Of a DNA stretch of 64,000 bases, positions 30,318 through 63,613 are shown one piece after another. The stretch's first letter is position 1, and each line of letters starts with the position of its first letter. This stretch comes from Patescibacteria group bacterium (lineage in GTDB: Bacteria; Patescibacteriota; Patescibacteriia; UM-FILTER-42-10). A program made the translations under genes and the position numbers. Location: the NCBI GenBank assembly GCA_041664365.1, contig JBAYKW010000002.1, forward strand, positions 11,858-75,857. The letters run 5' to 3'. The notes beneath the pieces were generated by a model. The model did no database searches and was not told the DNA's origin. It worked only from the letters and a program-made list of their open reading frames with translations.

Positions 30318-30329
30318 TTGAAAACATAA

Positions 30330-30527
30330 TATTAAACTGGAATAGTACCAGGGAACACCGGTGTAAATCCGGGGCAGTCCCGCTACTGTAATCTCAGGGC
30401 ATTTTTTTAGAAAATGTACTGGGAAAGTCAGAATACTGGTATATTCAAAATTAATTCTTTCTCCGCGGATAGGGAAAGAGGTAAAACTGCCGATTTTGCC
30501 TTCCTGTCCTAGGAAGGTTTTTTAATA
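30330..30527 (+). ncRNA. cobalamin (AdoCbl) riboswitch with a terminator-type expression platform
   Basis: cAGGGAAcaccGGTGtAAATCCggggcagtcccGCTACTGTAA matches the conserved core and B12-box of the cobalamin riboswitch consensus. Downstream hairpin GCCTTCCTGTCCTAGGAAGG plus TTTTTT lies 30 nt before the 30557 gene. Confidence 0.7.
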
Positions 30528-30556: not shown

Positions 30557-31021
30557 ATGATCAAGAAGAGAATCGCATTTCTTTTTTCATTACTCCTGCT
30601 GACAACAATAATAGGAGCGGGGTGTACAAATAATCAAGATGCTAACAATCAAGATGTCAACAATCAAAATGTCGGCACAACAAATACTGCTACTGAAAAC
30701 AGCAATGAATCAAATGTTTCAGATGTTGATAGCGATCTGAGTCTTGTAATTACTATGGATGACCAAAGTACCACTTACCCGGTCACAATCCAGAAATATT
30801 CCACTGCGCTGGATGTCTTAAGAAAGGTTGCCGGTGATAATAATCTCGAACTGGATACGCAGGAATCTACCTATGGTGTATATGTTAATGGTCTGGCCGG
30901 GAAAACGGGTGGTGACAACAACAAGTATTGGCTGTATTATATTAACGGAGAGTCTGCCACAATGAGTGTGGTGGATTATATTATTAACGAAGGGGATTCA
31001 ATTGAATTTAAATTTGAATAA
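30557..31021 (+). CDS. secreted lipoprotein, putative cobalamin-binding (DUF4430 / transcobalamin-like) protein
   Basis: Lipobox LTTIIGAGC, a low-complexity NNQD linker, and a C-terminal YWLYYINGE...GDSI.F domain. Directly controlled by the B12 riboswitch. Confidence 0.45.
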   Translation: MIKKRIAFLFSLLLLTTIIGAGCTNNQDANNQDVNNQNVGTTNTATENSNESNVSDVDSDLSLVITMDDQSTTYPVTIQKYSTALDVLRKVAGDNNLELDTQESTYGVYVNGLAGKTGGDNNKYWLYYINGESATMSVVDYIINEGDSIEFKFE

Positions 31022-34997: not shown

Positions 34998-35074
34998 TGG
35001 TAGCAGGGGAGAGGTTCGAACTCTCGACCTCGGGCTTATGAGTCCCGCGCTCTAACCAGCTGAGCTACCCTGCC
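34998..35074 (-). tRNA. tRNA-Met (CAT), elongator-type
   Basis: Minus-strand cloverleaf GGCAGGG-TA-GCTC.AGCTGGTTA.GAGC...CTCATAA...GAGAG.TTCGAAC.CTCTC-CCCTGCT-A-CCA. G1-U72 pairs, CCA encoded. Confidence 0.75.
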
Positions 35075-35377
35075 GCGTCCTTTTTATGCTTCAGGTTTCG
35101 TACTTCCCGCTTTGCGGGAACTACTTCACCTTTCGCATAAAAACTCCTTTCCTCGCAAAGGCGTGCTCGTCGAGCTTACGCTCTCCTGCGCTACTCCTTT
35201 GCTCGGGTTTTTATTCTTTATATTTTATGACTTGTGTGCTTCTATAACACTCGGTTGGTTTTGAGTTTAATTGGGGCCCCCGACGAGCAAAGCTCGGTGG
35301 GGAAAGGGGCATAATGCGTAGGGTGAAGTGAATGCAATAATTTGCAGACACGGAACCCGAAGCATTTAAATGACCCT

Positions 35378-35453
35378 TGGTTGCGGGGGGCGGACTCGAA
35401 CCGCCGACCTCCAGGTTATGAGCCTGACGAGCTGACCACTGCTCTACCCCGCG
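35378..35453 (-). tRNA. tRNA-Met (CAT), initiator-like (C1xA72 mismatch)
   Basis: CGCGGGG-TA-GAGC.AGTGGTCA.GCTC...CAGG.CTCATAA.CCTG...GGCGG.TTCGAGT.CCGCC-CCCCGCA-A-CCA. An unpaired C1/A72 and GG/CC pairs next to the anticodon loop suggest tRNA-fMet. Confidence 0.65.
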
Positions 35454-35818
35454 TCGAGTGATCGCGAACTGCGACCTACATTTGTCCGGAACTGATGTTC
35501 CGAACAAATTCCGATCTCCGTTCGCGTCCCTCTCTCCTCGCAAAGGCGTGCTCGTCGAGCTCACGCTCTCCTGCGCTACTCCTTTGCTCGGGTTTTATAT
35601 TCTATGCCTTATGCGCTTCCAATTTACTCGTTAGAATTTTTATTGTTAATATGCTACCGCAGTTTAGCCTAAATATATTATTTTGGCAAGTTTCATAGTG
35701 TATATCGTAAAATGGGGTCCCCGACGAGCAAAGCTCGGTGTGGAGAGGGACACAAATGTGAAAGGTGAAGTGAATGCAATAATTTGCAGACACGGAACCT
35801 AAAACATTTGATGACCCG

Positions 35819-35905
35819 TGGTACCGGGAGAGAGACTTGAACTCTCATGATGTTGCCATCACTGGATTTTGAGTCCAGCGCGTCTGCCAGTTCCGCCATC
35901 CCGGC
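35819..35905 (-). tRNA. tRNA-Leu (CAA) with a long variable arm
   Basis: GCCGGGA-TG-GCGG.AACTGGCAGA.CGC...CTGGA.CTCAAAA.TCCAG-TGATGGCAACATCATG-AGAG.TTCAAGT.CTCT-CTCCCGGT-A-CCA read from the minus strand. Confidence 0.75.
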
Positions 35906-40411: not shown

Positions 40412-41851
40412 CTAATTTTGCCTGCTGTAGTACCTGATCTTTTCCCGCGCGATATTTGTTTTAACGAAGCTGAGCCAGTCGGTGCTCGGCTTTTTACGAT
40501 TTTTATCAATAATTATTTCTACCATATCGCCGCTTTTCAATGTCGTATCCAGACTCGCTATTTTTTCGTTTATTCTTGTGCCAATACATTTAATCCCGAC
40601 ATCTGTGTGGATAGTAAATGCAAAATCAACTGGCGTCGAATCTTCCGGTAAATCAATTACATCTCCTTTGGGTGTAAAAACAAAAATTCTGTTTTGAAAA
40701 ATATCTACTTTTATCGCTTCCAAGAAATGAGTTTTGTCTTTTGACTCTTTTTGTATAGTAACGAGATCTTTTATCCAGTTGGGGGAATCAATCGTAATTC
40801 CCCGGCCATTTTTTGTTTTTCCTGATTCAGAATAATGCCAATGGGCGGCAATTCCGTATTCAGCAAATTCATGCATTTCGGGAGTCCGAATCTGAAACTC
40901 CACCAGTTTGCCGTTTAAACAAAAAACTGTGGTGTGCAGTGATTGATAACCGTTCGGTTTTGGCGTGGCAATATAGTCTTTAATTCTGCCTGTTAGAGGC
41001 TTCCAGTATTTATGGATGATTCCAAGGGTGGCATAGCAGTCGCTGATTGTCGGTACGATTATACGCAACGCTACAAGATCGTATATTTTACTGAAATCCT
41101 TATCCTTCATCAGCAGTTTTTTATACAAGCTATACAGATATTTAGTACGGCCATGGATCGATAAGGATTCGATTCCCTCTTTTCTTAATATTACTTTAAT
41201 TTCTTTTATGACCTCTTCTAAATATTTCTCTTGTTTTACAATTCTTCCTTTTGTTTCTTTCATCAGCCAGGCATATTCCTCCGGTAGGACATGGGGAAAT
41301 GATAGATCCTCAAGCATACCTTTTATTTCGCCCATACCGAGTCTGTTGGCGATCGGGGAATAAATCTCCAGGGTTTCCATGGCAATTCTCCTCCGCTTTT
41401 CTTCCGGTAGGGCATCCAGTGTTTCTAAATTATGCATGCGGTCGGCAAATTTGATCAGAATTATTCTGACATCTTTGGCCATGGCCAGGAACATTTTTCT
41501 GAGATTCTCCACATATCTTTGCATACCGCGGTATTTTATTTTACCGAGTTTGGTGATCCCCGCAACCAAAGTTGCGATGTCTTTGCCGAATTCTTTTCTG
41601 ATATCTTCAATTGTTAAATCGGTATCTTCCGGAACGTCGTGCAATAATCCGGCAATAATAATTTTTTCGTCCAACCCCATATCTACTAAATTGCTGGCTG
41701 TATGGAGCGGATGTTGTATATAATCCTCTCCAGAGCGTCTTTTCTGCCCCTTGTGGGCCTCTTTGGCATAATCATAAGCCAAACGAATCATGTCCAGATC
41801 CATTTTGGGGTTTTTCTTCGCTATTTTATTCAGTAATTGTTGTATAGTCAT
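40412..41851 (-). CDS. rel: bifunctional (p)ppGpp synthetase/hydrolase, RelA/SpoT homologue (short form)
   Basis: HD hydrolase domain (HPLHTASNLVDMGLDEKIIIAGLLHDVPEDT), synthetase domain (DLVALRIIV...RIKDYIATPKPNGYQSLHTTV), and a C-terminal TGS domain. Confidence 0.8.
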   Translation of the reverse strand: MTIQQLLNKIAKKNPKMDLDMIRLAYDYAKEAHKGQKRRSGEDYIQHPLHTASNLVDMGLDEKIIIAGLLHDVPEDTDLTIEDIRKEFGKDIATLVAGITKLGKIKYRGMQRYVENLRKMFLAMAKDVRIILIKFADRMHNLETLDALPEEKRRRIAMETLEIYSPIANRLGMGEIKGMLEDLSFPHVLPEEYAWLMKETKGRIVKQEKYLEEVIKEIKVILRKEGIESLSIHGRTKYLYSLYKKLLMKDKDFSKIYDLVALRIIVPTISDCYATLGIIHKYWKPLTGRIKDYIATPKPNGYQSLHTTVFCLNGKLVEFQIRTPEMHEFAEYGIAAHWHYSESGKTKNGRGITIDSPNWIKDLVTIQKESKDKTHFLEAIKVDIFQNRIFVFTPKGDVIDLPEDSTPVDFAFTIHTDVGIKCIGTRINEKIASLDTTLKSGDMVEIIIDKNRKKPSTDWLSFVKTNIAREKIRYYSRQN

Positions 41852-41950
41852 TGGGGGGGGTCGAAATATATTTCCAGTTTAGAATACAATCACCCAACAA
41901 TCAAGCGTAAATCAAAAGAAGAGCATTTCGCTCTTCTTTAATAAGAATAT

Positions 41951-42667
41951 TTATTTGATTTTTTTAGCCTTTTTTTCAAGCATAGCAATCGCATCTTCCA
42001 GCGTGACGGAATCGCTGGTAATTGTTTTAGGAACGGATACATTTATTTTACCGTTCGTAATATATGGTCCGAATTTTCCTTCTTTGATAATAATGTCATT
42101 TCGCTCCTCATCCTGTCCCAGATTGATCACCGCAGATTTACCGCCCGGCCTGAGCTTGTCACCCTTCAGTAGGTCTCTTGCCTCATCCAGCGTGATTTTT
42201 AATGGTGACAGGTTTGACGGGAGACTGCGGGTTTCTTTTCCCGCTTTGATGTAAGGTCCGAATTTTCCGTTGGATACTGTAATAATTTCACCATCATCAG
42301 CTGTGCCCAGAGTTTTCGGTAAAGTCAAAAGTTCCAGGGCCGTATCAAGATTTAATTTTTTAGCATCCATTCCCCTAAGTAGTGATGCTGTTTTTGGTTT
42401 TCTGCCCTTTTCTGAATCTCCCAGCTGAATATATGTGCCATAACGTCCTTCTTTCAGGTAAACCGGTTTTTTTGTTTCCGGATCATCACCGATTAACCGG
42501 TCCTCATGCATTTCTTGCTTAACTCCTTCTCGGACAATATTAATCGTATTTTTGCAGTCAGGATAACCGGTACATGCCAGAAACTCACCGTATCTGCCGG
42601 ATCTTAAAACCATCGTTTTCCCGCATCGGTCGCAAATTTCTTCAATTTTAGGCTCTGTATTATCCAT
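41951..42667 (-). CDS. topA: DNA topoisomerase I C-terminal segment (zinc ribbon plus Topo_C repeats), encoded as a separate ORF
   Basis: CDRCGKTMVLRSGRYGEFLACTGYPDC zinc ribbon followed by repeated KFGPYIKAGK / KFGPYITNGK TopA C-terminal repeats. Its ATG lies 1 nt after the stop of the upstream topA ORF and in a different frame. Confidence 0.6.
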   Translation of the reverse strand: MDNTEPKIEEICDRCGKTMVLRSGRYGEFLACTGYPDCKNTINIVREGVKQEMHEDRLIGDDPETKKPVYLKEGRYGTYIQLGDSEKGRKPKTASLLRGMDAKKLNLDTALELLTLPKTLGTADDGEIITVSNGKFGPYIKAGKETRSLPSNLSPLKITLDEARDLLKGDKLRPGGKSAVINLGQDEERNDIIIKEGKFGPYITNGKINVSVPKTITSDSVTLEDAIAMLEKKAKKIK

Positions 42668-42668
42668 G

Positions 42669-44870
42669 TTATTTTGTCAGTTTATGTGGGTTATGGTTCG
42701 GGCAGGTTTTATCACTGCACCTTTCCGGGATCGTTTTTGTTCCCTCCATCATTAGAGCACCGCATACTCCCGTTTCTCTGGTATATTCACAAAATCTTCC
42801 GGTCGGTTTGGCCTTGATGGCGTGTTTGCATTTCGGATAATTAGAACAGCTGTAAAATTTTCCGAACCGCCCTCTTTTTTCCACCATTTCACCGTCTTTG
42901 CATACAGTACATTTAACTCCAGTGGAATTCTGGCCGTTTTCACTGTTCTTGATGTATTTGCATTTCGGATAATTAGAACAGGAGATAAATAATCCGTACT
43001 TTCCTTCGCGTTCCACCTGTTTACCGTCCTTACATTCCGGACACGGATCACCGGTTTCTTTCGGACCCTGCATTTCCTTGCCGTCGATTGTCCTGCTACC
43101 ACTGCAATCGGGAAACTTGGCACAGCTTAAAAATTTTCCGGAGCGTCCGAGTTTGATTATCATTTCAGACTGGCATTTCGGGCACTTGATATCTTTATCC
43201 GCTTTACCGAGGTTGGTTATTTTTGCTATTTTATCTTTTGCTTTCACGTCTTTGGAAAAAGGTCCATAAAAATCTTTGAGGGTTTTTACATAATCTCTTT
43301 TACCCTGGGCGATTTCATCCAATTCATCTTCCATTTCAGCGGTAAATGAATCGCTAATATAATTTGCAAAATTGTCCTCCAGGAATTTGCTGACCACTTC
43401 GCCGGTATCGGTCGGTTTTAAAGCACGGCCTTCTTTTTCAACATATCCTCGGGAAATTATCGTATTAATAATTGACGCGTAAGTGCTCGGTCGTCCGATT
43501 CCTCGTTTTTCCAGTTCTTTAACCAGGCCGGCTTCAGTGTATCTGGGTAGCGGTTGTGTTTGCTTTTCGAGCGAATTTATTTGATCTAAAGTCAGGGGAT
43601 CTGCAACTTTCAATTTCGGCAGATCCACCTCTTCATTACGCGCTGTCGGATCAGCCAGAAGCCATCCGGGATTAATAATATGTGTTCCGTTGACAGCAAA
43701 ATCAGGTATACTGCCATTTGTGATATTTGCAGTGATCTTTGTTTTCAATAGCAATGCGTCAATCATTTGGCTCGCCATGGTTCTTTGCCAAATCAGCTGG
43801 TAAAGTTTTTTCTGATCATCAGTGGCGCCGGCAGTTTTTTTGGAAAAATCTGACGGTCTGATCGCTTCGTGCGCTTCCTGCGCATTTTTACTTTTGGTTT
43901 TGAATACTCTGACCTGGACTAATTTATCACCATACTCTTTAGTTATGGTCCTCGTGATGTTGCCGAGTGATTCTTTACTCAGATTGGTACTGTCGGTACG
44001 CATGTAGGTGATGTATCCAGCTTCATAAAGCCTCTGAGCAGTACTCATCGTACGCGATGGAGTAAAACCAAAACGTGAACTGGCGGTTTGTTGCAGGGTA
44101 GAAGTTGTAAAAGGTGCGCGCGGACTCCGCTTTGCTTCATTTTCTTTCATTTCAATAACCTGCCAGGCGCCTTTTTTGCCTTGTTCAATAATACTGTCAA
44201 CTTCTTTGATGTCTTTTGGTTCGACAGAACAATTGAATTGTATTTTAATATTTTCTTTAGTTACCAAATCAGCAGTTATCTGCCAATAGGTCTCCGGCAC
44301 AAATTTCTGGATCAGTCTCTCTCGCTCAACCAAAATCCGCAAGGCGGGGGATTGAACTCTCCCTGCTGACAAACCATATCTAACCTTTTTCCAGATTAAT
44401 CCGCTCAGATCATAACCAACCAGCCTGTCTAGTACCCTGCGTGCTTCCTGTGCAATACGCAGATTCTGATCGATCTCCCTCGGATTAGCGATCGCTTCGT
44501 CTATTGCTGACTGGGTAATTTCGTGAAATACAATTCGTTTGATTTTTTTACTATTTCCGTCACTATTCAGTACCTCGGCTATATGCCAGGCAATAGCCTC
44601 TCCTTCACGGTCAGGGTCAGTTGCCAGCAAAATCTCATCCGACACTTTCGCAATCTTTCGCAATTCCGCCACAATTACTCTTTTATCTGCCGAAATCTCA
44701 TACCTTGGCACAAATCCCGCCTCAATATCGATTGCCTGCTTATTACTTTTCGGAATATCGCGAATATGACCGACACTGGCCTTAACGGTGTATTCTGAAT
44801 GATCACCTAAAAGTTTAGTAACTGTTTTTGATTTCGTAGGTGACTCAACGATGACTAGTTTTTTTGTCAT
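42669..44870 (-). CDS. topA: DNA topoisomerase I (Toprim plus catalytic core plus four zinc ribbons)
   Basis: Toprim block KLVIVESPTKSKT...ASVGHIRDIP, type IA core, and four CxxC...CxxC ribbons (CPKCQSE...CAKFPDC, CPECKDG...CSNYPKC, CTVCKDG...CSNYPKC, ...). Confidence 0.85.
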   Translation of the reverse strand: MTKKLVIVESPTKSKTVTKLLGDHSEYTVKASVGHIRDIPKSNKQAIDIEAGFVPRYEISADKRVIVAELRKIAKVSDEILLATDPDREGEAIAWHIAEVLNSDGNSKKIKRIVFHEITQSAIDEAIANPREIDQNLRIAQEARRVLDRLVGYDLSGLIWKKVRYGLSAGRVQSPALRILVERERLIQKFVPETYWQITADLVTKENIKIQFNCSVEPKDIKEVDSIIEQGKKGAWQVIEMKENEAKRSPRAPFTTSTLQQTASSRFGFTPSRTMSTAQRLYEAGYITYMRTDSTNLSKESLGNITRTITKEYGDKLVQVRVFKTKSKNAQEAHEAIRPSDFSKKTAGATDDQKKLYQLIWQRTMASQMIDALLLKTKITANITNGSIPDFAVNGTHIINPGWLLADPTARNEEVDLPKLKVADPLTLDQINSLEKQTQPLPRYTEAGLVKELEKRGIGRPSTYASIINTIISRGYVEKEGRALKPTDTGEVVSKFLEDNFANYISDSFTAEMEDELDEIAQGKRDYVKTLKDFYGPFSKDVKAKDKIAKITNLGKADKDIKCPKCQSEMIIKLGRSGKFLSCAKFPDCSGSRTIDGKEMQGPKETGDPCPECKDGKQVEREGKYGLFISCSNYPKCKYIKNSENGQNSTGVKCTVCKDGEMVEKRGRFGKFYSCSNYPKCKHAIKAKPTGRFCEYTRETGVCGALMMEGTKTIPERCSDKTCPNHNPHKLTK

Positions 44871-44965
44871 AAAAAATAAAGAATTTTTACAATACTTCTA
44901 TATATAACCGCAAATGAGATTACTGTCAAATATTCCCGCCATAATTCTGTTTTCGGTGGGAAGAT

Positions 44966-46048
44966 CTATTTAGCAATAACGTAATTCATTCCGCCGATAT
45001 TTCTTACCTTTCCCTTCATTTCCATTAATGTCAGGGTGGAGCTTGTTACTGTCGCGCTAAGTCCGCTTTGCGTAACGATATCGTCAATGTGAGTCGGTTC
45101 AGATGAAATAGCAGAGAATATTTTAGCCTCTTCCGGATTATCGGCTATTACATCGCTTTTCACCTGCCTGGTAATTTTTGCTGAAATATTTAATGTTTCC
45201 AAAATGTCGTCTGAACTGGTTACCACTCTTGCACCCATTTTAATCAGGTTATTCGGACCAACAGAACTTTTTTGATAGATACTGCCGGGTACGGCAAAAA
45301 CCTCCCGATTCTGTTCAAGGGCGAATCGTGCTGTAATTAATGCCCCGCTTTTTTGACCCGCCTCTATCACTACACAGCCCTTACTTAATCCGGAAATTAT
45401 TCTGTTTCTGATCGGGAAATGATATTTTAGCGGGGCAGTGCCAAGCGGAAATTCGGAAATGATCATGCCATTTTTTTCAATAATCTCATGCGCAAGGATT
45501 GTATGAGTCTGGGGGTGCAATATATCCAGTCCCGAGCCTAAAACAGCCACGGTTGTCCCGTCATTATCTAATACCGCCTGATGTACAATCCCATCAATGC
45601 CCAAAGCCATCCCGGAGGCAATACAAATTTTTTCCTGGGCAAGATTACCCGCAATGTCTTTTGCAACTTCCCGACCGTAAGCGGTAGGGTTGCGGGTACC
45701 GACAATGGCGATTGTTAATTTATTTAACGCGTCCCGGTTACCTTTCCAATACAACACAGCTGGTGGACTGGATATTTCTTTCAAAAGATTGGGATATGCT
45801 TGGCTTTCTAAGGTAATCATTTTCACGCCGTGCTTTTCCAGTTTTTCCCACTCCTTGGTCGGGTTAATCAGACATCTTTTTTCCACAATTATCTGCGCAA
45901 TTTTTGGCAGTACGCCACATGCACATAATTCAAGATATGTAGCTTTCCATGCATTTTCCATATTGCCAAAACCGGCAATCAGCTTTTTAAAAGTCCGTGG
46001 TCCGACCTGCGGGATGCAGTTAAAGCTATTCCAGAATATTTGATCCAT
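44966..46048 (-). CDS. dprA: DNA processing protein DprA/Smf
   Basis: Rossmann-like DprA core (IAIVGTRNPTAYGREVAKDIAGNLA, GMALGIDGIVHQAVL, ISEFPLGT) and a C-terminal winged-helix region. Confidence 0.8.
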   Translation of the reverse strand: MDQIFWNSFNCIPQVGPRTFKKLIAGFGNMENAWKATYLELCACGVLPKIAQIIVEKRCLINPTKEWEKLEKHGVKMITLESQAYPNLLKEISSPPAVLYWKGNRDALNKLTIAIVGTRNPTAYGREVAKDIAGNLAQEKICIASGMALGIDGIVHQAVLDNDGTTVAVLGSGLDILHPQTHTILAHEIIEKNGMIISEFPLGTAPLKYHFPIRNRIISGLSKGCVVIEAGQKSGALITARFALEQNREVFAVPGSIYQKSSVGPNNLIKMGARVVTSSDDILETLNISAKITRQVKSDVIADNPEEAKIFSAISSEPTHIDDIVTQSGLSATVTSSTLTLMEMKGKVRNIGGMNYVIAK

Positions 46049-50206: not shown

Positions 50207-50282
50207 GGGGATGTAGCTCAGTTGATAGAGCATCCTGCTTTCAGTAGGAAGGTCGTAGGTTCAAGTCCTACCATCCCTGCCA
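50207..50282 (+). tRNA. tRNA-Glu (TTC)
   Basis: GGGGATG-TA-GCTC.AGTTGATA.GAGC-A-TCCTG.CTTTCAG.TAGGA-AGGTC-GTAGG.TTCAAGT.CCTAC-CATCCCT-G-CCA. Confidence 0.7.
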
Positions 50283-50292
50283 TTTATTTGGT

Positions 50293-50367
50293 GTCCCGTT
50301 AGCTTAATGGCAGAGCAGCTGACATCTCAATCAGCCGATCGGGGTTCGAGTCCTCGACGGGGCACCA
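50293..50367 (+). tRNA. tRNA-like gene with an 8-nt anticodon loop (CATCTCAA); anticodon unresolved (CTC or TCT possible)
   Basis: GTCCCGT-TA-GCTT.AATGGCA.GAGC-A-GCTGA.CATCTCAA.TCAGC-CGAT-CGGGG.TTCGAGT.CCTCG-ACGGGGC-A-CCA. The cloverleaf is otherwise good. Confidence 0.5.
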
Positions 50368-50385
50368 TTCTGCACATTGTAAGGT

Positions 50386-50460
50386 TGGCGCGTAGCTCAG
50401 CTGGATAGAGCGTCCCACTCTGTGGGAAGGTCTCGGGTTCGATTCCCGACGCGCCGACCA
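50386..50460 (+). tRNA. tRNA-like gene with a shortened anticodon arm (5-bp stem plus 5-nt loop TCCCA.CTCTG.TGGGA); possible pseudo-tRNA or unusual tRNA
   Basis: TGGCGCG-TA-GCTC.AGCTGGATA.GAGC-G-TCCCACTCTGTGGGA-AGGTC-TCGGG.TTCGATT.CCCGA-CGCGCCG-A-CCA. It is 75 nt, 2 nt short in the anticodon arm. Confidence 0.45.
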
Positions 50461-50476
50461 TTTGGTCTCACTGGTT

Positions 50477-50547
50477 GCCAGCGTAGTTCAGCTTGAAGAA
50501 CACTTGATCTGTTTTCAAGAGTTCGTCAAACTCCTCCGCTGGCACCA
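50477..50547 (+). other. tRNA-like fragment or pseudogene (71 nt, ends in CCA; no regular T-arm)
   Basis: GCCAGCG-TA-GTTC.AGCTTGAA.GAAC-A-CTTGA.TCTGTTT.TCAAG-...-CGCTGGC-A-CCA. The acceptor, D-arm and anticodon arm are tRNA-like, but the region between anticodon arm and acceptor is too short. Confidence 0.35.
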
Positions 50548-50554
50548 GAAAATC

Positions 50555-50627
50555 GCCCACGTGGCTCAAATGGTAGAGCATCACACCAGGAGTGTGAAGA
50601 TTACTAGTTCGAATCTAGTCGTGGGCT
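50555..50627 (+). tRNA. tRNA gene of standard length (no CCA encoded) with a non-canonical anticodon loop CCAGGAG (no U33); anticodon unresolved
   Basis: GCCCACG-TG-GCTC.AAATGGTA.GAGC-A-TCACA.CCAGGAG.TGTGA-AGATT-ACTAG.TTCGAAT.CTAGT-CGTGGGC-T, followed by a T-run. Confidence 0.5.
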
Positions 50628-54325: not shown

Positions 54326-54402
54326 GCTCGTGTAGCTCAGTTGGTTAGAGCGTTCGATTCACATTCGAAAGGTCTCTGGTTCAAATCCAGACACGAGCAC
54401 CA
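54326..54402 (+). tRNA. tRNA-Val (CAC)
   Basis: GCTCGTG-TA-GCTC.AGTTGGTTA.GAGC-G-TTCGA.TTCACAT.TCGAA-AGGTC-TCTGG.TTCAAAT.CCAGA-CACGAGC-A-CCA. Canonical U33 and A37. Confidence 0.8.
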
Positions 54403-57772: not shown

Positions 57773-60700
57773 ATGTTGACCAAAGGGAGGAAAAACTCAA
57801 AACAAAAAAGTTTTTTTGGACTAGGTATGCTGACTAGCGCTTTACTGGGGGTTTTTGTGACCGGCGCGGTCAGTTTTTTTGTTACACCGATTGCAAATGC
57901 AATATCATTTGATTCTACTTTGGGTGCCACTTTTGGTCTGGGTACCAGAGACCTTCTGGAGACGGTAATCAACATTGTCCAATGGGCATTGGGCCTTTTG
58001 GGTCTGGTGGCGGTAATTATCATAATGTACGGCGGGTTTGTTTGGATGACTGCCAAAGGCAATCAGGATAAAATTGCCAAGGCAAAAAAGATTATATTTA
58101 ACGGTTTGATCGGTCTCGCGATTGTCCTATTATCGTGGGCGATTGTATTTTTTGTCATGCGGACGATTGATGACGCGACGAGCGGTGGGTCGGTAATGTG
58201 TGGTGCAGCTGTTTGCAGTGAGACTTGTTGTCCCGGCAATATTTGTGCAACCAGTTGCGGTAGCGGATCATTCCCAACAGCTGATCTTGAGATTACAGGA
58301 TTTGAAGCTTCGCGTGAAACGCAACCATCTGGCCCCGTTACTCAGTGTTCATCAATAAAAGCGGTGTTTAACGTTCCAATTAATCCTGCAACTGTAGAAG
58401 CGGCAGAACTGCCGGACAATCTGAGAACTGAAGATATTGCAGTCGGTGGACCATTTGCAAGTACAACGGATGACTTTTTAACTTCGGCAAGAACCGTAAC
58501 ATATTATCATGATAGTCTTTTTAACGCCGGAGATTATGAAGAATGGTACCCGACAACAGGTACTCCAATCCAGGATCTGGATTTTAGAAATATTTCAGTT
58601 TGCGACGACTGTACGGACGGACCTGATCCTTGGAAATGGGATTTTACTGTGGGTAATGAAACCGACATCACTCCGCCGGAGATTGATTCTACTTACCCGA
58701 TCTTTTCCGGGGCGGGGTATCCGGACCGGAATGTGTCTCGGGCACCTATTTTCACACTACATTTCGATGAACCGATTGATGATAATTCCATAATGGATGC
58801 AAGTGGGCACCCAAAAAATAATTTTGAACTTTGGGAATGTACGGACGACTCTTGTGGTTCGTTTGTGAGTCAATATAGCAATAACAATCTATTAGTGCAG
58901 TCAATTTCCCAAGGAGTAAATATCTACATTGAGAATCCGGCCGTAAATCCATTAAACTCATTTACTTGGTATCAGATCAGGGTCCAGGGTGTTGAAGATT
59001 TGTGTACTAACCCGATGGTAGGACAGATAGTTTGGGAGTTTGAAACGAACGATGCCGTTCCGGGAGTAGTGAGCTGGTATCCGACCGGACTGAATGAATG
59101 TCCGAGTACGGATATTTACATCACCTTCGGCACTTCCATGTATAACCAAACTTTGCAGATTACGATTGATAATGGCACTGACTTTAGACAATCCCCACCG
59201 CTTTCTCCATCAACAATACCATCTCCAGGACCTTACTATGTCCAATTTGGTAATAATTTTTTTGAAGCAGTGGATACTGCTACCCCTAATGATTTCAAAG
59301 TATTCAGGCTTAGGCCGGACCCGGATCTTGTTGCGAATTCTGCATACATCGTTAATGTCGCAACAAATATGGTGATAGATATTAATGGTAACTATTTAAG
59401 CAAGCAGTGGGGATTTTCCGTTACAGATCCTGCCAGTTGTACCTGTTCACCGTATGTTGCCTATTTCAGTCCCACACAAGGTCCACGTGAGTCGTGTGTA
59501 ACAATTCAGGGCGCTTGTTTCAAAGGAACGCCCGCAAACCCTGCTGTCCCAACTCATATAATTTTTGATGATAATGTGCGTCCTCAGCAATCCGTTGTAC
59601 CTGCACTTGGGACATATGATGATAATTATATTACGACAAAAATCCCGGCAGTATATGATAATAATGACCGTCCACAGGTTCAGGTAGAACTTGATTATGA
59701 TAATCCCAGTTATGGTGTTCTATATTCCGCCGCCTATTATCTTGGCGGGCCGAACTTCTTTGTAAACAGTACGGAAGTATCTGATGGGCCGTGTTTGTGG
59801 TCGATTAGTCCGACTTCGGGCTATGTAGGAACGGGAATGAATGCAACCGGCGAAAGATTTGGTGCAACTCAAGGGTCGGGTCATATCGACTATGGCGGGG
59901 GAGTATCCGGAGTTGTCGGTGGCTGGTCTGATACCGCGATTTCAACATCAGTGCCGGCGGGTGCCGTGAGTGGGGATGTAACTGTAACTAGTGACGTAGC
60001 AGGACCGAGTAACGGGATTAATTTTACAGTTCTGACCGTTCCACCAGGAACACCATATGTTGTGATAAACAATTTTTGTGATCAATATACACTATCATCA
60101 CCTTCCCCATGGCCTGATTATCAGGAAGTATGCCGTAATGTTAAATTTTCTGCTCGGTTTAGCGAAAACATGAATCCTTCAACGATCAATGGTGCAAATG
60201 TTTTTTTTCAACCATGTAATGATGCATCTTGTTTAGTCGTTGGCGCAGCATTAACAGGGGCATTAACCATGCCAACTGGTGATACATTCGAATTTGATCC
60301 CTCAGCATTTTTAAATCCTAACACATGGTATCGCGGTACAATTACCACCGGTGTTCGAAGTCTTTCATCAAACACATCTATGGCAACAGATTATGTTTGG
60401 AAATTTAGGACCAAATTAGATACTACGGAATGCGGTATTGAAGCTTATAATTTAATCGCAGATACGTATTTTCTTTATACTGTTAATTCCGCTCCAAATG
60501 CAATGTTTACTTCTTCTGCGATTGGACCCGCATGTCAGATTTTATCTGGTACTTATGATTGGAATTGGAATGCTAATGTCGGAACTGTACCACCCTATGT
60601 AGCCGAAAGAGTCTTATCATCCGGACCTACGGTATCTCATTATCAAGGTCGTAATGAAGGCTCTGGCATGGTAAGAGCGTGGATATCTGGATCATCAATT

Positions 60701-63613
60701 CCTCCGGTAGAACGTTTACTTACAGTTGATCCTACATTTTGTGAAGATTCAATTCATTGTAATTCATTATGCTCCGGCAGTACTTGCGTGAATAATCACT
60801 GCACGCCGATTATCCAAAGTATTGTGCCAAACCCTTCACCAATTGGCACTGGGGTTACTATCAATGGTTGTATGTTTGGCAGTTATACTGGACTTGCAGG
60901 AGTTGATTTTTCTGGAAGCCCTGGTCCGTGGGTTCCGACATCATGGCCGGCATGTGGTCCGGCGGGAACAACCTGGACGGACACATCTATCGTCGTGGAA
61001 GTGCCGAATGAAGATACTCCGGCAACTTTTGATGATGCGGTAGATGGTCCGATAAGAATAAGAAATAGTTATGGTGAAAGAGATTACACCAATACTCCAC
61101 CAGGTCCAATTATATCTTTTGATGTCGATGGGCCTTTCCATCCAACCCTTTGCTATTTTAATCCGAGCAGCGGAACTCAGGGGCAATTGAATGCTACTGA
61201 AGCGGTGGGAGAAGATTTTGGCACGGATGGCACGATTGATTTTACCAGTAGTGCCGGCAGATCAGATTCTCCGGGATTTACCTCATGGGATGAAACTTCA
61301 ATACAGGAAATAGATCTTCCGGCCGATGCACTGACCGGAACTGGGATTGTACATTCTACGGTTCCTACAGTAGGCGACAGTAATCCTGTTCCATTTGGTA
61401 TTACATGCAATGTTAATTCGGACTGTACCAGCGGATGCTGTTTTACCGGAATGTGTTCCGACCTGGCAATGTGCAGTACCGGCGAACCGGGAGCGCTTTG
61501 TCAAATCCCTGACAATACTTCTTGTCTTTCGGGCCCGCTGTCTTTTCCGGCCGGATATCGCTGTATCAGTGATACCGGTGATATTTATCCTGAAACTCCA
61601 CCACCACCAGGACCACAGGGAGCTGACTGCAGATCGTGTTGTATGCCTGGCACTGAATATAATGGTCTGACTTGTTTATCAAACCAGGATGGCTGTACCG
61701 GACCTGCAAGAGGGCTTTATTGCGGGTGTGCTACTGATGATCAATGCGGAGCCCCGAATACCATCGGTTGCGGTGATATGGGCGGAACTATGTGCTGTAC
61801 CGGCAGGCCGGCTGTATTAAACGTGGATCCGTTTGATGGAGAGCCGAATGTATGTACAAACCGGTCAATCGTGGTTGAATTTAACCAGATTATGGATGCA
61901 TCAACATTTAATTCTTCCACATTTATTGTGGAGGACGCATCCGGTACACCATATACTGGGACGATAGATAGCTACAACGATGGAATCCATACTTTTCTGG
62001 TGTTTTATTCGGATACTGAATGGAATCCGAGTGAATCGCATACCATAACCATTAACGGTGAATCAGATATTAATGACGGTGTTCATGATGGTGTTTTAAA
62101 TCAGTATCAAGTGGGTATGGATGGCATTTTTACATCAACTTTTGATACCGATGCAGACAGGTGTTTATTGGATCACGTCGAAATAAGTATTCAATACGGT
62201 GCTCCATATCCAGCTCAACCAGTTGCTTTTCATGACATGTATACATGTATTCAAAGCAATTGTACCGGTGATGTAGATCCTGTTGCTGGCAACCAGCATA
62301 GATATTTGGCTTGGGCAAAAAATGAATTTAACGCTAATATTTCTGGCGGTACTTGGAACTGGAATAATTCGGTAACCAACGGTGTACTAAATATTTCTTT
62401 ACCAAATTCTCCTTCAACATTAATAGGCACGGATCAAGGTCTGGATGGAACCGCGATGATTCGTGCGGATGTTACTATGCCGTCTGGGGGAGGGTCAGGA
62501 TTTGCGGTGGTACAGGCCACGGTACAGGCGTGCCAGGATCCATGGCCGACTATACCACCATTCTTCTTCAGTGATCCTGCACCGTCCACAAATTTCACGG
62601 ATTTCTATTGTCGTGAGGGCGGTTTACCTGGTACTGCTGATCCTATGATTATTTCCCGTTCACCTGTCGATCCTCTGAAGGATGAACTGCTTAAAGAAAT
62701 GTTTTTCTCAATATGTAAAGACGACGATGCTACATGTATTAGTAGTAATACTTCCGGAGATGTGATTGGAATTCGTGTTATGGAAAACGGCAGTTTTCTT
62801 TCGCCAACCGCCTGGTTCAACCAAATTTTCCCGGAGGATACCGGATCGTGCGTACCAATCGGCACGGTTGATGGATATCAGGCTTGTCGGGCGGGCAGAA
62901 CTATTTATGTCGCGGCATCCAATCATGACGGCACGACACTGTGGCCGAATATCTACCTTATTTCCTATAACGAAGGGGCAAGCGGTCAGACAATCAATAT
63001 CTATAATCAATTAGTTCAGAATTGGTATTTCAACTCCGGACCGAGTTTAATGAATTCTCCTTGCGCCGGAGGAACAAATAAAGATTGTATTGTTCGTGAT
63101 ACGAAGCGTGTTACCGATATCGGTGAAATTGGCTATCTCCTCTTAAACTATGGGTATCATAACAGTGGTTTTCCGGAGCTTTCCGCCGGGACATTCTTGT
63201 CGGGATTTACTTCCAGTAAATGGCCGTCTTGGATGGCTGAATTCGGTAATGCTATTGGCATGAATCCGCCTCTGGATCCGATCAATGAATTTTCCGGAAC
63301 ACCGGCCTGTAGCGTTCCGCCCTACGATCCATCCGGCACCTGCTGGAATGATGCTGAGCATACATTCAATTGTCCCAACACTTCCAAAACCTACGCATAC
63401 CAGTATGATAGTTCAAACCCAAAATTGTTTACCAGACTGGAGTATTCAGGCTTGGGAGCGTATAACAGCGGTATAAGGTCGGATAGACTTTATAGCGGGA
63501 ATCCTTGTGCCGGCTACGCTGGATCTAATTGTTCTGCTTGTTTCAACTATTCTGCTGAAGCTGCGGACGGTACTAACGGATTTTGGATTAACAATTGGCA
63601 ACAACCAAATTAG
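57773..63613 (+). CDS. giant (1946 aa) Cys-rich cell-surface protein with an N-terminal membrane anchor (about 3 TM, pilin/VirB2-like appearance) and many Ig-like/IPT-like beta domains
   Basis: N-terminal hydrophobic helices (LGMLTSALLGVFVTGAVSFFV, ALGLLGLVAVIIIMYGGFVWMTAKG, LIGLAIVLLSWAIVFFV). The remainder is Thr/Ser/Gly/Pro/Cys-rich with repeated beta-domain-like modules and several CxxC/CC clusters. No enzymatic motif recognised. Confidence 0.5.
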   Translation: MLTKGRKNSKQKSFFGLGMLTSALLGVFVTGAVSFFVTPIANAISFDSTLGATFGLGTRDLLETVINIVQWALGLLGLVAVIIIMYGGFVWMTAKGNQDKIAKAKKIIFNGLIGLAIVLLSWAIVFFVMRTIDDATSGGSVMCGAAVCSETCCPGNICATSCGSGSFPTADLEITGFEASRETQPSGPVTQCSSIKAVFNVPINPATVEAAELPDNLRTEDIAVGGPFASTTDDFLTSARTVTYYHDSLFNAGDYEEWYPTTGTPIQDLDFRNISVCDDCTDGPDPWKWDFTVGNETDITPPEIDSTYPIFSGAGYPDRNVSRAPIFTLHFDEPIDDNSIMDASGHPKNNFELWECTDDSCGSFVSQYSNNNLLVQSISQGVNIYIENPAVNPLNSFTWYQIRVQGVEDLCTNPMVGQIVWEFETNDAVPGVVSWYPTGLNECPSTDIYITFGTSMYNQTLQITIDNGTDFRQSPPLSPSTIPSPGPYYVQFGNNFFEAVDTATPNDFKVFRLRPDPDLVANSAYIVNVATNMVIDINGNYLSKQWGFSVTDPASCTCSPYVAYFSPTQGPRESCVTIQGACFKGTPANPAVPTHIIFDDNVRPQQSVVPALGTYDDNYITTKIPAVYDNNDRPQVQVELDYDNPSYGVLYSAAYYLGGPNFFVNSTEVSDGPCLWSISPTSGYVGTGMNATGERFGATQGSGHIDYGGGVSGVVGGWSDTAISTSVPAGAVSGDVTVTSDVAGPSNGINFTVLTVPPGTPYVVINNFCDQYTLSSPSPWPDYQEVCRNVKFSARFSENMNPSTINGANVFFQPCNDASCLVVGAALTGALTMPTGDTFEFDPSAFLNPNTWYRGTITTGVRSLSSNTSMATDYVWKFRTKLDTTECGIEAYNLIADTYFLYTVNSAPNAMFTSSAIGPACQILSGTYDWNWNANVGTVPPYVAERVLSSGPTVSHYQGRNEGSGMVRAWISGSSIPPVERLLTVDPTFCEDSIHCNSLCSGSTCVNNHCTPIIQSIVPNPSPIGTGVTINGCMFGSYTGLAGVDFSGSPGPWVPTSWPACGPAGTTWTDTSIVVEVPNEDTPATFDDAVDGPIRIRNSYGERDYTNTPPGPIISFDVDGPFHPTLCYFNPSSGTQGQLNATEAVGEDFGTDGTIDFTSSAGRSDSPGFTSWDETSIQEIDLPADALTGTGIVHSTVPTVGDSNPVPFGITCNVNSDCTSGCCFTGMCSDLAMCSTGEPGALCQIPDNTSCLSGPLSFPAGYRCISDTGDIYPETPPPPGPQGADCRSCCMPGTEYNGLTCLSNQDGCTGPARGLYCGCATDDQCGAPNTIGCGDMGGTMCCTGRPAVLNVDPFDGEPNVCTNRSIVVEFNQIMDASTFNSSTFIVEDASGTPYTGTIDSYNDGIHTFLVFYSDTEWNPSESHTITINGESDINDGVHDGVLNQYQVGMDGIFTSTFDTDADRCLLDHVEISIQYGAPYPAQPVAFHDMYTCIQSNCTGDVDPVAGNQHRYLAWAKNEFNANISGGTWNWNNSVTNGVLNISLPNSPSTLIGTDQGLDGTAMIRADVTMPSGGGSGFAVVQATVQACQDPWPTIPPFFFSDPAPSTNFTDFYCREGGLPGTADPMIISRSPVDPLKDELLKEMFFSICKDDDATCISSNTSGDVIGIRVMENGSFLSPTAWFNQIFPEDTGSCVPIGTVDGYQACRAGRTIYVAASNHDGTTLWPNIYLISYNEGASGQTINIYNQLVQNWYFNSGPSLMNSPCAGGTNKDCIVRDTKRVTDIGEIGYLLLNYGYHNSGFPELSAGTFLSGFTSSKWPSWMAEFGNAIGMNPPLDPINEFSGTPACSVPPYDPSGTCWNDAEHTFNCPNTSKTYAYQYDSSNPKLFTRLEYSGLGAYNSGIRSDRLYSGNPCAGYAGSNCSACFNYSAEAADGTNGFWINNWQQPN

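Follow-up and report, generated by a model that had tools for sequence, protein, structure and literature searches.

We identified, in a 64,000-nucleotide stretch of DNA from a Patescibacteria group bacterium (contig JBAYKW010000002.1, positions 11,858 to 75,857; hereafter the window), a topoisomerase I gene, topA, whose stop codon is separated by a single base from the start of a second open reading frame (ORF). The upstream frame, ORF1, encodes topoisomerase I (TopA), while the downstream frame, ORF2, encodes C-terminal modules of the kind found in TopA tails. An earlier note on this DNA, made from the sequence alone, had reported two adjacent ORFs of 733 and 238 amino acids (aa) in different frames, separated by TAA-C-ATG, and the ORF list and the junction sequence bear this out. 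We consider it likely that the two are genuine, separately translated genes, a complete TopA and an accessory tail-domain protein, within an operon-like run of dprA, topA, ORF2 and a relA/spoT-like gene. Judged from its sequence and that of its relatives, ORF2 is predicted to be an additional, paralogous tail-domain gene and not the missing end of ORF1.

Domain content of ORF1 and ORF2

ORF1 has the composition of a full-length bacterial TopA. It matches the TIGR01051 topA_bact equivalog model of NCBIfam with 702.1 bits (cutoff 456.4) over model positions 1–630 of 632, and Pfam detects in it a Toprim domain, the Topoisom_bac core and three Zn_ribbon_Top1 domains. The latter correspond to three canonical four-cysteine (Cys4) zinc ribbons starting at C563, C610 and C654, and they are followed by one atypical Cys4 unit (C694/C703/C718/C723). 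The earlier note's description of an upstream ORF with Toprim, core and four zinc ribbons thus stands, with three ribbons called by Pfam and the fourth, atypical one visible in the sequence. The motifs VESPTK, DPDREGE and GYITYMRTDS are all present, and we take them to be the equivalents of E. coli TopA residues E9, D111/D113/E115 and Y319, respectively, an assignment with which the Pfam matches to Toprim and Topoisom_bac agree. Pairwise ratios of nonsynonymous to synonymous substitution rates (dN/dS) for ORF1 are 0.02–0.04.

The end of ORF1 coincides with the end of the protein in its relatives. The chain finishes with ...EGTKTIPERCSDKTCPNHNPHKLTK, which carries the terminal motif NHNPHKLTK, and a terminus of the form ...PERCSDKTCPNHNPHKLxK is common to more than 100 Patescibacteria TopAs of ~720–790 aa without Toprim_C_rpt repeats. 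Among the best 120 ORF1 homologues, which range in length from 701 to 789 aa, Toprim, core and zinc ribbons are found in all and Toprim_C_rpt in none (0/120). The HNPHK motif occurs in 105 retrieved proteins, and in every one of them (105/105) the protein ends 1–11 residues past it; a fused protein, in which the HNPHK terminus runs into ORF2-like sequence, was not found among 384 retrieved proteins. Because all 105 proteins with the motif end at this point, ORF1 is predicted to be a full-length, self-sufficient TopA of the kind that is standard in its Patescibacteria group.

ORF2 consists of one Zn_ribbon_Top1 domain, three Toprim_C_rpt repeats and a short basic tail (KKAKKIK), in keeping with the zinc ribbon and the KFGPY-type repeats that had been noticed in the downstream ORF. 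Toprim_C_rpt (PF13368) scores 159.2 bits against a gathering threshold of 22.3, in three stretches (E 2.3e-47), and Zn_ribbon_Top1 (PF01396) scores 64.6 bits against a threshold of 32, with the Cys4 pattern CDRC...C...C at residues 12–39. These two families are the only Pfam matches of ORF2, and a catalytic core is not among them. ORF2 is thus made of TopA C-terminal modules only, as a free-standing TopA tail is, and it is not confined to zinc ribbons as YrdD-like proteins are. Its database label already reads “topoisomerase C-terminal repeat-containing protein”. In two related loci (L096:2929-3666 and L098:2945-3666; P0007 and P0004), the public start of ORF2 is called at an internal Met, which gives a 221-aa protein that has lost the first CxxC of the ribbon. 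An upstream ATG 1–3 nucleotides (nt) past the topA stop restores an ORF2 of 239–244 aa, and we regard the public start as a mis-annotation.

The signature G(R/K)(Y/F)GPY appears three times in ORF2, as GRYGTY (with Thr in place of Pro), GKFGPY and GKFGPY, and the Gly and Tyr of the signature do not vary across an alignment of 40 homologues. This sequence is the hallmark of the Topo_C_Rpt repeat, where it lies at the β2–β3 turn and its aromatic residues stack on two consecutive bases of single-stranded DNA (ssDNA) (PMC10969213, PMC7192597). An AlphaFold2 model of ORF2 built with 40 homologues has a mean predicted local distance difference test score (pLDDT) of 85.5. In it a ribbon precedes three units, each with four strands and one helix, and low-confidence linkers connect these parts. 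The predicted structure fits the Topo_C_Rpt fold, a four-stranded antiparallel sheet with a C-terminal helix. When the model was compared with the PDB using Foldseek, the top match was M. smegmatis TopA with ssDNA (6PCM, E 8.5e-11), followed by E. coli TopA and by complexes of RNA polymerase with topoisomerase I. A sequence search of the PDB agrees, with 6PCM as the best entry for ORF2 and repeat 2 aligned to M. smegmatis TopA residues 745–837. The conservation of the motif, together with the stacking described in PMC7192597, suggests that ORF2 may bind ssDNA in the same manner.

ORF2 is under strong purifying selection, with pairwise dN/dS of 0.04–0.10 and synonymous divergence (dS) from 0.74 to saturation. 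The resemblance of its repeat region to a different TopA type could be taken to mean that ORF2 is the decaying remnant of a second, horizontally acquired topA that has lost its catalytic part. These dN/dS values rule out such a pseudogene, to which we give practically no weight: the synonymous sites are saturated, the ORF is intact at 238–244 aa in 16/16 loci, the signature residues do not vary among the 40 homologues, and the predicted fold is confident.

The arrangement in relatives and the origin of ORF2

The two-ORF state recurs in independently assembled genomes. An identical ORF2 protein with the same junction is encoded in two further assemblies, one from ENA (L001) and one made by Logan from a different run (L002), and the exact protein is also present in NCBI and JGI. 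Patescibacteria metagenome-assembled genomes with ORF2 at 73–89% identity all have two ORFs, and they keep the gene order mfd, small ORF, dprA, topA, ORF2, relA/spoT-like gene, tetratricopeptide repeat protein, parB, parA. Of the loci with a TopA at 83.6% identity or more to ORF1, 16/16 have two ORFs. These loci represent seven lineages, and in all of them ORF2 starts 1–4 nt past the topA stop.

The junctions themselves differ between lineages. The ORFs are in the +1 relation in the window (TAA-C-ATG), in L003/L013 (TAA-AAAT-ATG) and in L004/L098 (TAG-T-ATG). They are in frame in L007 (TAG-ACC-ATG), L010 (TAA-ACC-GTG), L096 (TAA-TAC-ATG) and L014, which has a 3-nt spacer. Across the seven lineages, then, the stop codon (TAA or TAG), the spacer (1, 3 or 4 nt) and the frame (+1 or 0) all vary, while an ATG or GTG start is always kept. 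In the +1 lineages the ORF2 frame reaches back only to a TGA or TAA located 12–15 nt 5' of the ATG, which in the window is a TGA at 12 nt. No conserved slippery motif was found at the junctions of the seven lineages, and no shared downstream structure is evident there.

These observations bear on two of the explanations that the earlier note had offered. The first is that a one-base insertion or deletion in sequencing or assembly has artificially broken one gene. Such artefacts do occur, for example in loci of other phyla in which topA lies in two to five pieces (L093, L094 and L095). For the locus in the window, however, we regard an error as virtually ruled out: the same junction is present in independent assemblies, two ORFs with different junctions are found in seven diverged lineages, and in four of these the ORFs are in frame and are parted by an intact stop codon and not by an indel, a state that a one-base error would not produce. 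The comparison with relatives that the note had called for returned the same two-ORF state in all 16 related loci.

The second explanation is programmed recoding, in which a +1 frameshift or readthrough would produce a fusion of ~971 aa beside or instead of the two chains. The stop and the ATG in the window are one base apart, and in L007, L010, L014 and L096 readthrough of a single stop would fuse the ORFs. A general mechanism of this kind is nevertheless rejected, because the frame relation changes between lineages (+1 in the window, L013 and L004 and 0 in the four lineages just named), and the stop codon and the spacer vary as well. The orthologous junctions show neither a conserved recoding sequence, such as a slippery heptamer, nor a constant frame relation; in addition, the ORF2 frame is closed shortly upstream in the +1 lineages, and every lineage has kept an ATG or GTG for ORF2. 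We consider recoding very improbable. With sequencing error excluded and a programmed frameshift very unlikely, the two separate polypeptides are, on the evidence of these sequences, to be regarded as genuine.

Short Toprim_C_rpt proteins are also found in other phyla on long contigs (ENA ERZ250394xx, contig_N), at L093:2145-4726, L095:2604-5107 and L094:1423-4013, within the loci of fragmented topA mentioned above; in L095 the neighbouring GIDA gene is broken too. We had considered a recurrent split of topA in other phyla (P0037, P0067) and rejected it, as the pieces have the appearance of indel artefacts. Broken loci of the L093 and L095 type are probably indel errors of their assemblies, and they provide a contrast to the locus in the window rather than support for it. 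L094, with proteins of 596 and 248 aa, is ambiguous between a real split and an artefact.

To assess how widely ORF2 is distributed, we used the ORF1 protein to retrieve 80 species-representative loci, supplemented these with loci from protein searches, and classified the first ORF downstream of topA in each. The content of this slot is nested by TopA identity. In the 16 loci at or above 83.6% identity, it holds a protein of the ORF2 type, with one ribbon and the G(R/K)(Y/F)G.Y turn three times (twice in L096). At 70–77% identity, four loci (L099, L100, L017 and L018) have instead a protein of 163–169 aa with four Cys4 units, which begins 0–10 nt after topA; in L015 a ribbon begins right after topA and the contig ends there, and L016 has no accessory gene. 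Below 70% identity, no tail-like gene lies directly downstream in ~70 loci.

The four-ribbon genes (L099:5202-5711, L100:5205-5696, L017:6198-6704 and L018:6203-6703; also P0096) point to an origin from topA itself. Pfam finds three Zn_ribbon_Top1 stretches in the proteins of L017 and L018. The four-ribbon protein is colinear, ribbon by ribbon, with residues 561–721 of the tail of its own TopA (34% identity, E 6e-28), which suggests that a tandem duplication of the 3' portion of topA gave rise to it. ORF2 and the four-ribbon protein have in common the slot directly behind topA, a short N-terminus of similar sequence (MNDTN / MTDTN versus MDNTE and VTDTNNN) and the first ribbon. The ribbon of ORF2 is identical to the first ribbon of the L099 protein at 21/35 positions, compared with 12–15 identities over 24–33 aligned positions for ORF1's own ribbons.

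The repeats of ORF2 have their closest counterparts elsewhere. In a profile-free exhaustive search of 1.84 billion representatives, only ORF2's own cluster exceeded 51% identity. The next matches, at or below 51%, include single-chain TopAs with one ribbon and three repeats straight after the core (P0271, P0322 and P0362) and a partial TopA, OGL83328.1 (P0262), from Candidatus Uhrbacteria. ORF2 matches these one-ribbon, three-repeat tails over most or all of its length: it is colinear with those of P0271, P0322 and P0362 over residues 4–236 or 9–236, and its residues 4–171 are 46% identical to the tail of OGL83328.1. In contrast to ORF2, the tail in these proteins is fused to the core and is the only one they have, and the cores are distant from that of ORF1 (37% identity for OGL83328.1), even though the core is usually better conserved than the tail. 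The best match of ORF2 outside its own cluster, also at 46% identity, is a JGI protein (P0232, 423 aa) in which four Topo_C_Rpt-like repeats precede two zinc ribbons, the reverse of the usual order; its 1.5-kilobase contig is too short to hold the rest of the gene.

On the basis of short alignments and parsimony, the most economical history would involve two steps. In the ancestor of the wider clade, a tandem duplication of the 3' tail part of topA would have given rise to a free-standing four-zinc-ribbon protein directly downstream. In the subclade of the window, ribbons 2–4 of this paralogue would then have been replaced by three Topo_C_Rpt repeats similar to those in the one-ribbon, three-repeat tails of Uhrbacteria-type TopAs.

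A true fission would give a different history, in which an ancestral long TopA with the core, four ribbons, one more ribbon and three repeats was cut by a stop and a restart, leaving the ORFs as obligate subunits. Single-chain TopAs with both ribbons and repeats do exist; several matches of 900–1030 aa have repeats starting at around residues 710–870, and sequences with both motif types are marked in Table 1 of PMC10969213. The two ORFs also lie side by side on one strand, and the split has been inherited stably. Against fission, the end of ORF1 is exactly that of more than 100 relatives without ORF2, no retrieved protein joins the HNPHK terminus to ORF2-like sequence, and ORF2 is closer to the Uhrbacteria TopA tail than ORF1 is to the core of the same protein. 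Moreover, the nearest outgroups hold the different, four-ribbon protein in the slot and the farther ones nothing, a distribution for which fission would need many independent losses. We therefore consider fission unlikely. Of the genuine split that the earlier note had listed among its options, the existence of two separate polypeptides is upheld, whereas the idea of one topA cut in two is not: the ORFs do not rebuild a single chain of relatives from two incomplete parts, since ORF1 is complete, no fused relative was found among the 384 retrieved proteins, and the outgroups have another accessory gene or none.

Layout of the locus and other features of the window

The coordinates of topA, ORF2 and their neighbours are given in Table 1. 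On the minus strand the junction reads ...CAT AAA CTG ACA AAA TAA C ATG GAT AAT..., which places ORF2 in the +1 frame relative to ORF1. The 1-nt gap is ordinary for this genome, because other gene pairs in the window are equally tight, being 0–1 nt apart or overlapping (for example 17305/17307, 14725/14726 and 18530/18527). Stop codons in the window are TAA in 33 cases, TAG in 9 and TGA in 3. A Shine-Dalgarno-like motif precedes only 5/45 long ORFs, with A/T-rich sequence in front of starts, and the lack of such a motif before ORF2 is uninformative because these motifs are so rare. In a promoter and terminator scan of positions 41700-45100, no terminator was found on the minus strand between ORF1 and ORF2, and promoter-like matches were close to chance (12 found, 7.4 ± 2.9 expected). 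Both results fit, weakly, a co-transcription of topA and ORF2.

Table 1. Position of topA, ORF2, their domains and the adjacent genes in the window
Feature	Coordinates	Strand	Basis
ORF1, TopA, 733 aa	42669..44870	minus	ORF list; ATG start, TAA stop at 42669-42671
Toprim domain of ORF1, aa 4-118	44517..44861	minus	Pfam PF01751, E 3.9e-20
Topoisom_bac catalytic core of ORF1, aa 133-531, with the GYITYMRTDS active-site tyrosine motif	43278..44474	minus	Pfam PF01131, E 4.5e-122
C-terminal domain of ORF1, aa 563-733	42672..43184	minus	Pfam PF01396 in three stretches; Cys4 pattern scan
Junction TAA-C-ATG (ORF1 stop, one spacer base, ORF2 start)	42665..42671	minus	Sequence
ORF2, 238 aa, ATG start	41951..42667	minus	ORF list; Pfam PF01396 and PF13368
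Zinc ribbon of ORF2, aa 10-45, CDRC...CTGYPDC	42533..42640	minus	Pfam PF01396, E 7.1e-18
Topo_C_Rpt repeat 1 of ORF2, aa 57-113, GRYGTY	42329..42499	minus	Pfam PF13368; AlphaFold2, four strands and a helix; G74, G77 and Y79 invariant (40 sequences)
Topo_C_Rpt repeat 2 of ORF2, aa 118-168, GKFGPY	42164..42316	minus	Pfam PF13368; AlphaFold2; G134, G137 and P138 invariant
Topo_C_Rpt repeat 3 of ORF2, aa 181-237, GKFGPY, C-terminal helix and basic tail	41957..42127	minus	Pfam PF13368, best stretch aa 187-236; AlphaFold2; G197, G200 and Y202 invariant
dprA, directly upstream of topA	44966..46048	minus	ORF list; gene tables of L001, L003, L004 and L010
RelA/SpoT-family gene, 99 nt past ORF2	40412..41851	minus	ORF list; Pfam families in the L001 gene table

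Elsewhere in the window, Rfam detects an AdoCbl (cobalamin) riboswitch at 30324-30487 on the plus strand (57.3 bits against a gathering score of 50); a 154-aa ORF at 30557-31021 lies downstream of it. The stretches without a long ORF are accounted for by two tRNA clusters, of three genes at 35001-35905 (minus) and four genes at 50207-50627 (plus), and by a single tRNA at 54326-54399 (plus). Towards its end the window also contains a very long ORF of 1946 aa (57773-63613, plus).

Possible function and relation to known systems

Given its module content and its position, ORF2 probably works with TopA in trans, and it may act as a second TopA subunit. ORF2 would be made from the same mRNA as TopA and translated from its own ATG, possibly coupled to the termination of ORF1 by re-initiation at the adjacent start. 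The aromatic residues in its G(R/K)(Y/F)G(P/T)Y turns would bind ssDNA, and the protein would act in trans with TopA, either holding the passing strand as an additional or alternative grip or serving as a tether. The effect could be a higher processivity, or the targeting of TopA to underwound DNA behind RNA polymerase. Published work on other bacteria describes related activities: the tails of E. coli TopA bind both ssDNA and RNA polymerase (PMC4678816), and PMC3753633, citing Jain and Nagaraja 2006, mentions that the N-terminal domain of M. smegmatis TopA regains relaxation in vitro with a separately supplied C-terminal domain, which is of the Topo_C_Rpt type.

Two further readings of the function can be set beside this one. 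In the first, ORF2 is independent of TopA, as a general ssDNA-binding or nucleoid protein or as a competitor that binds RNA polymerase and modulates the recruitment of TopA, and its adjacency reflects only its origin by duplication. A free-standing homologue of the TopA tail, YrdD, exists in E. coli according to reference 56 as cited in PMC4678816, and the tail of ORF1 carries no lineage-specific change where ORF2 is present. On the other hand, the 0–10-nt linkage to the topA stop has been kept through long divergence and through the exchange of module type, which argues for selection on co-expression; physical cooperation is not proved by linkage. We hold this independent role to be possible, if rather doubtful. 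The second reading goes further than cooperation and is put forward tentatively. It sees a two-component TopA whose second subunit, binding the passing strand or tethering the enzyme to RNA polymerase, was exchanged from a four-ribbon copy of the tail to the Topo_C_Rpt tail of another TopA lineage.

Several points weigh against a complete TopA with a cooperating accessory protein. The expression of ORF2, its contact with ORF1 and its binding to DNA are putative. ORF1 already has four ribbons and may not need ORF2, which could equally act independently of TopA, and the absence of any accessory gene in L016 indicates that such a gene is dispensable at least there. The C-terminal tail of the ORF1 type is nearly the same whether TopA is accompanied by ORF2, by the four-ribbon protein or by neither, and so little change across lineages gives no hint that a docking site has co-evolved. 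The proposed mosaic origin draws on alignments of 35–74 aa and on one comparison of core and tail identities, which differences in rate between domains could confound. Finally, the relatives were covered over ±3–4 kilobases around topA, a span in which unlinked copies elsewhere in the genomes would be missed.

The combination of a complete TopA and a separate tail-domain protein resembles several known systems in part. The repeat fold and the G(R/K)(Y/F)GPY turn of ORF2 are like those of the TopA C-terminal domains D5–D8 of M. smegmatis and M. tuberculosis (6PCM, 5D5H). The mycobacterial repeats, however, are covalently attached and form the only tail of TopA, whereas ORF2 is a separate gene beside a TopA with a full zinc-ribbon tail. 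ORF2 also has three repeats instead of four and begins with a Cys4 zinc ribbon.

Like E. coli YrdD, ORF2 is a small protein composed of TopA tail modules only, with no core, and the four-ribbon proteins of L017, L018, L099 and L100 are of this kind as well. YrdD is not known to contain modules other than zinc ribbons or to lie next to topA, and it presumably acts independently in E. coli. Compared with it by description and not by sequence, ORF2 differs in being mostly Topo_C_Rpt and in abutting the topA stop. The two-subunit reverse gyrases of Nanoarchaeum equitans and Methanopyrus kandleri are precedents for a type IA topoisomerase function that extends over two polypeptides. In these naturally split enzymes each part is incomplete and the two together rebuild the single chain of their relatives; in the window, ORF2 comes on top of an ORF1 that is already complete.

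A literature search found no paper combining Patescibacteria with topA or topoisomerase I. The tail modules themselves, single chains with both module types, the free-standing YrdD and naturally split reverse gyrases are already known. The part that seems not to have been described before is their pairing: a complete zinc-ribbon TopA is coupled to a conserved Topo_C_Rpt protein that stands alone, and sister lineages have in its place a counterpart made of zinc ribbons only. The finding is of limited reach, in that it concerns a narrow group of uncultured bacteria and does not introduce a new enzyme class. For annotation, it means that neither this locus nor those of its relatives should be merged into one gene, marked as a frameshifted pseudogene or “corrected”; topA is to be treated as complete and ORF2 as a distinct gene.

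Why some TopA tails are built from zinc ribbons and others from Topo_C_Rpt repeats, and whether tails act in trans in cells, are poorly understood (PMC7192597, discussion). If the exchange of a second subunit outlined above took place, it would represent a natural domain swap, and both types of tail would be interchangeable and able to act in trans in vivo. With a full TopA and a free tail side by side, and with the alternative module in sister lineages, this clade may serve as a conserved natural case in which the interchangeability and trans-action of TopA tails can be studied.

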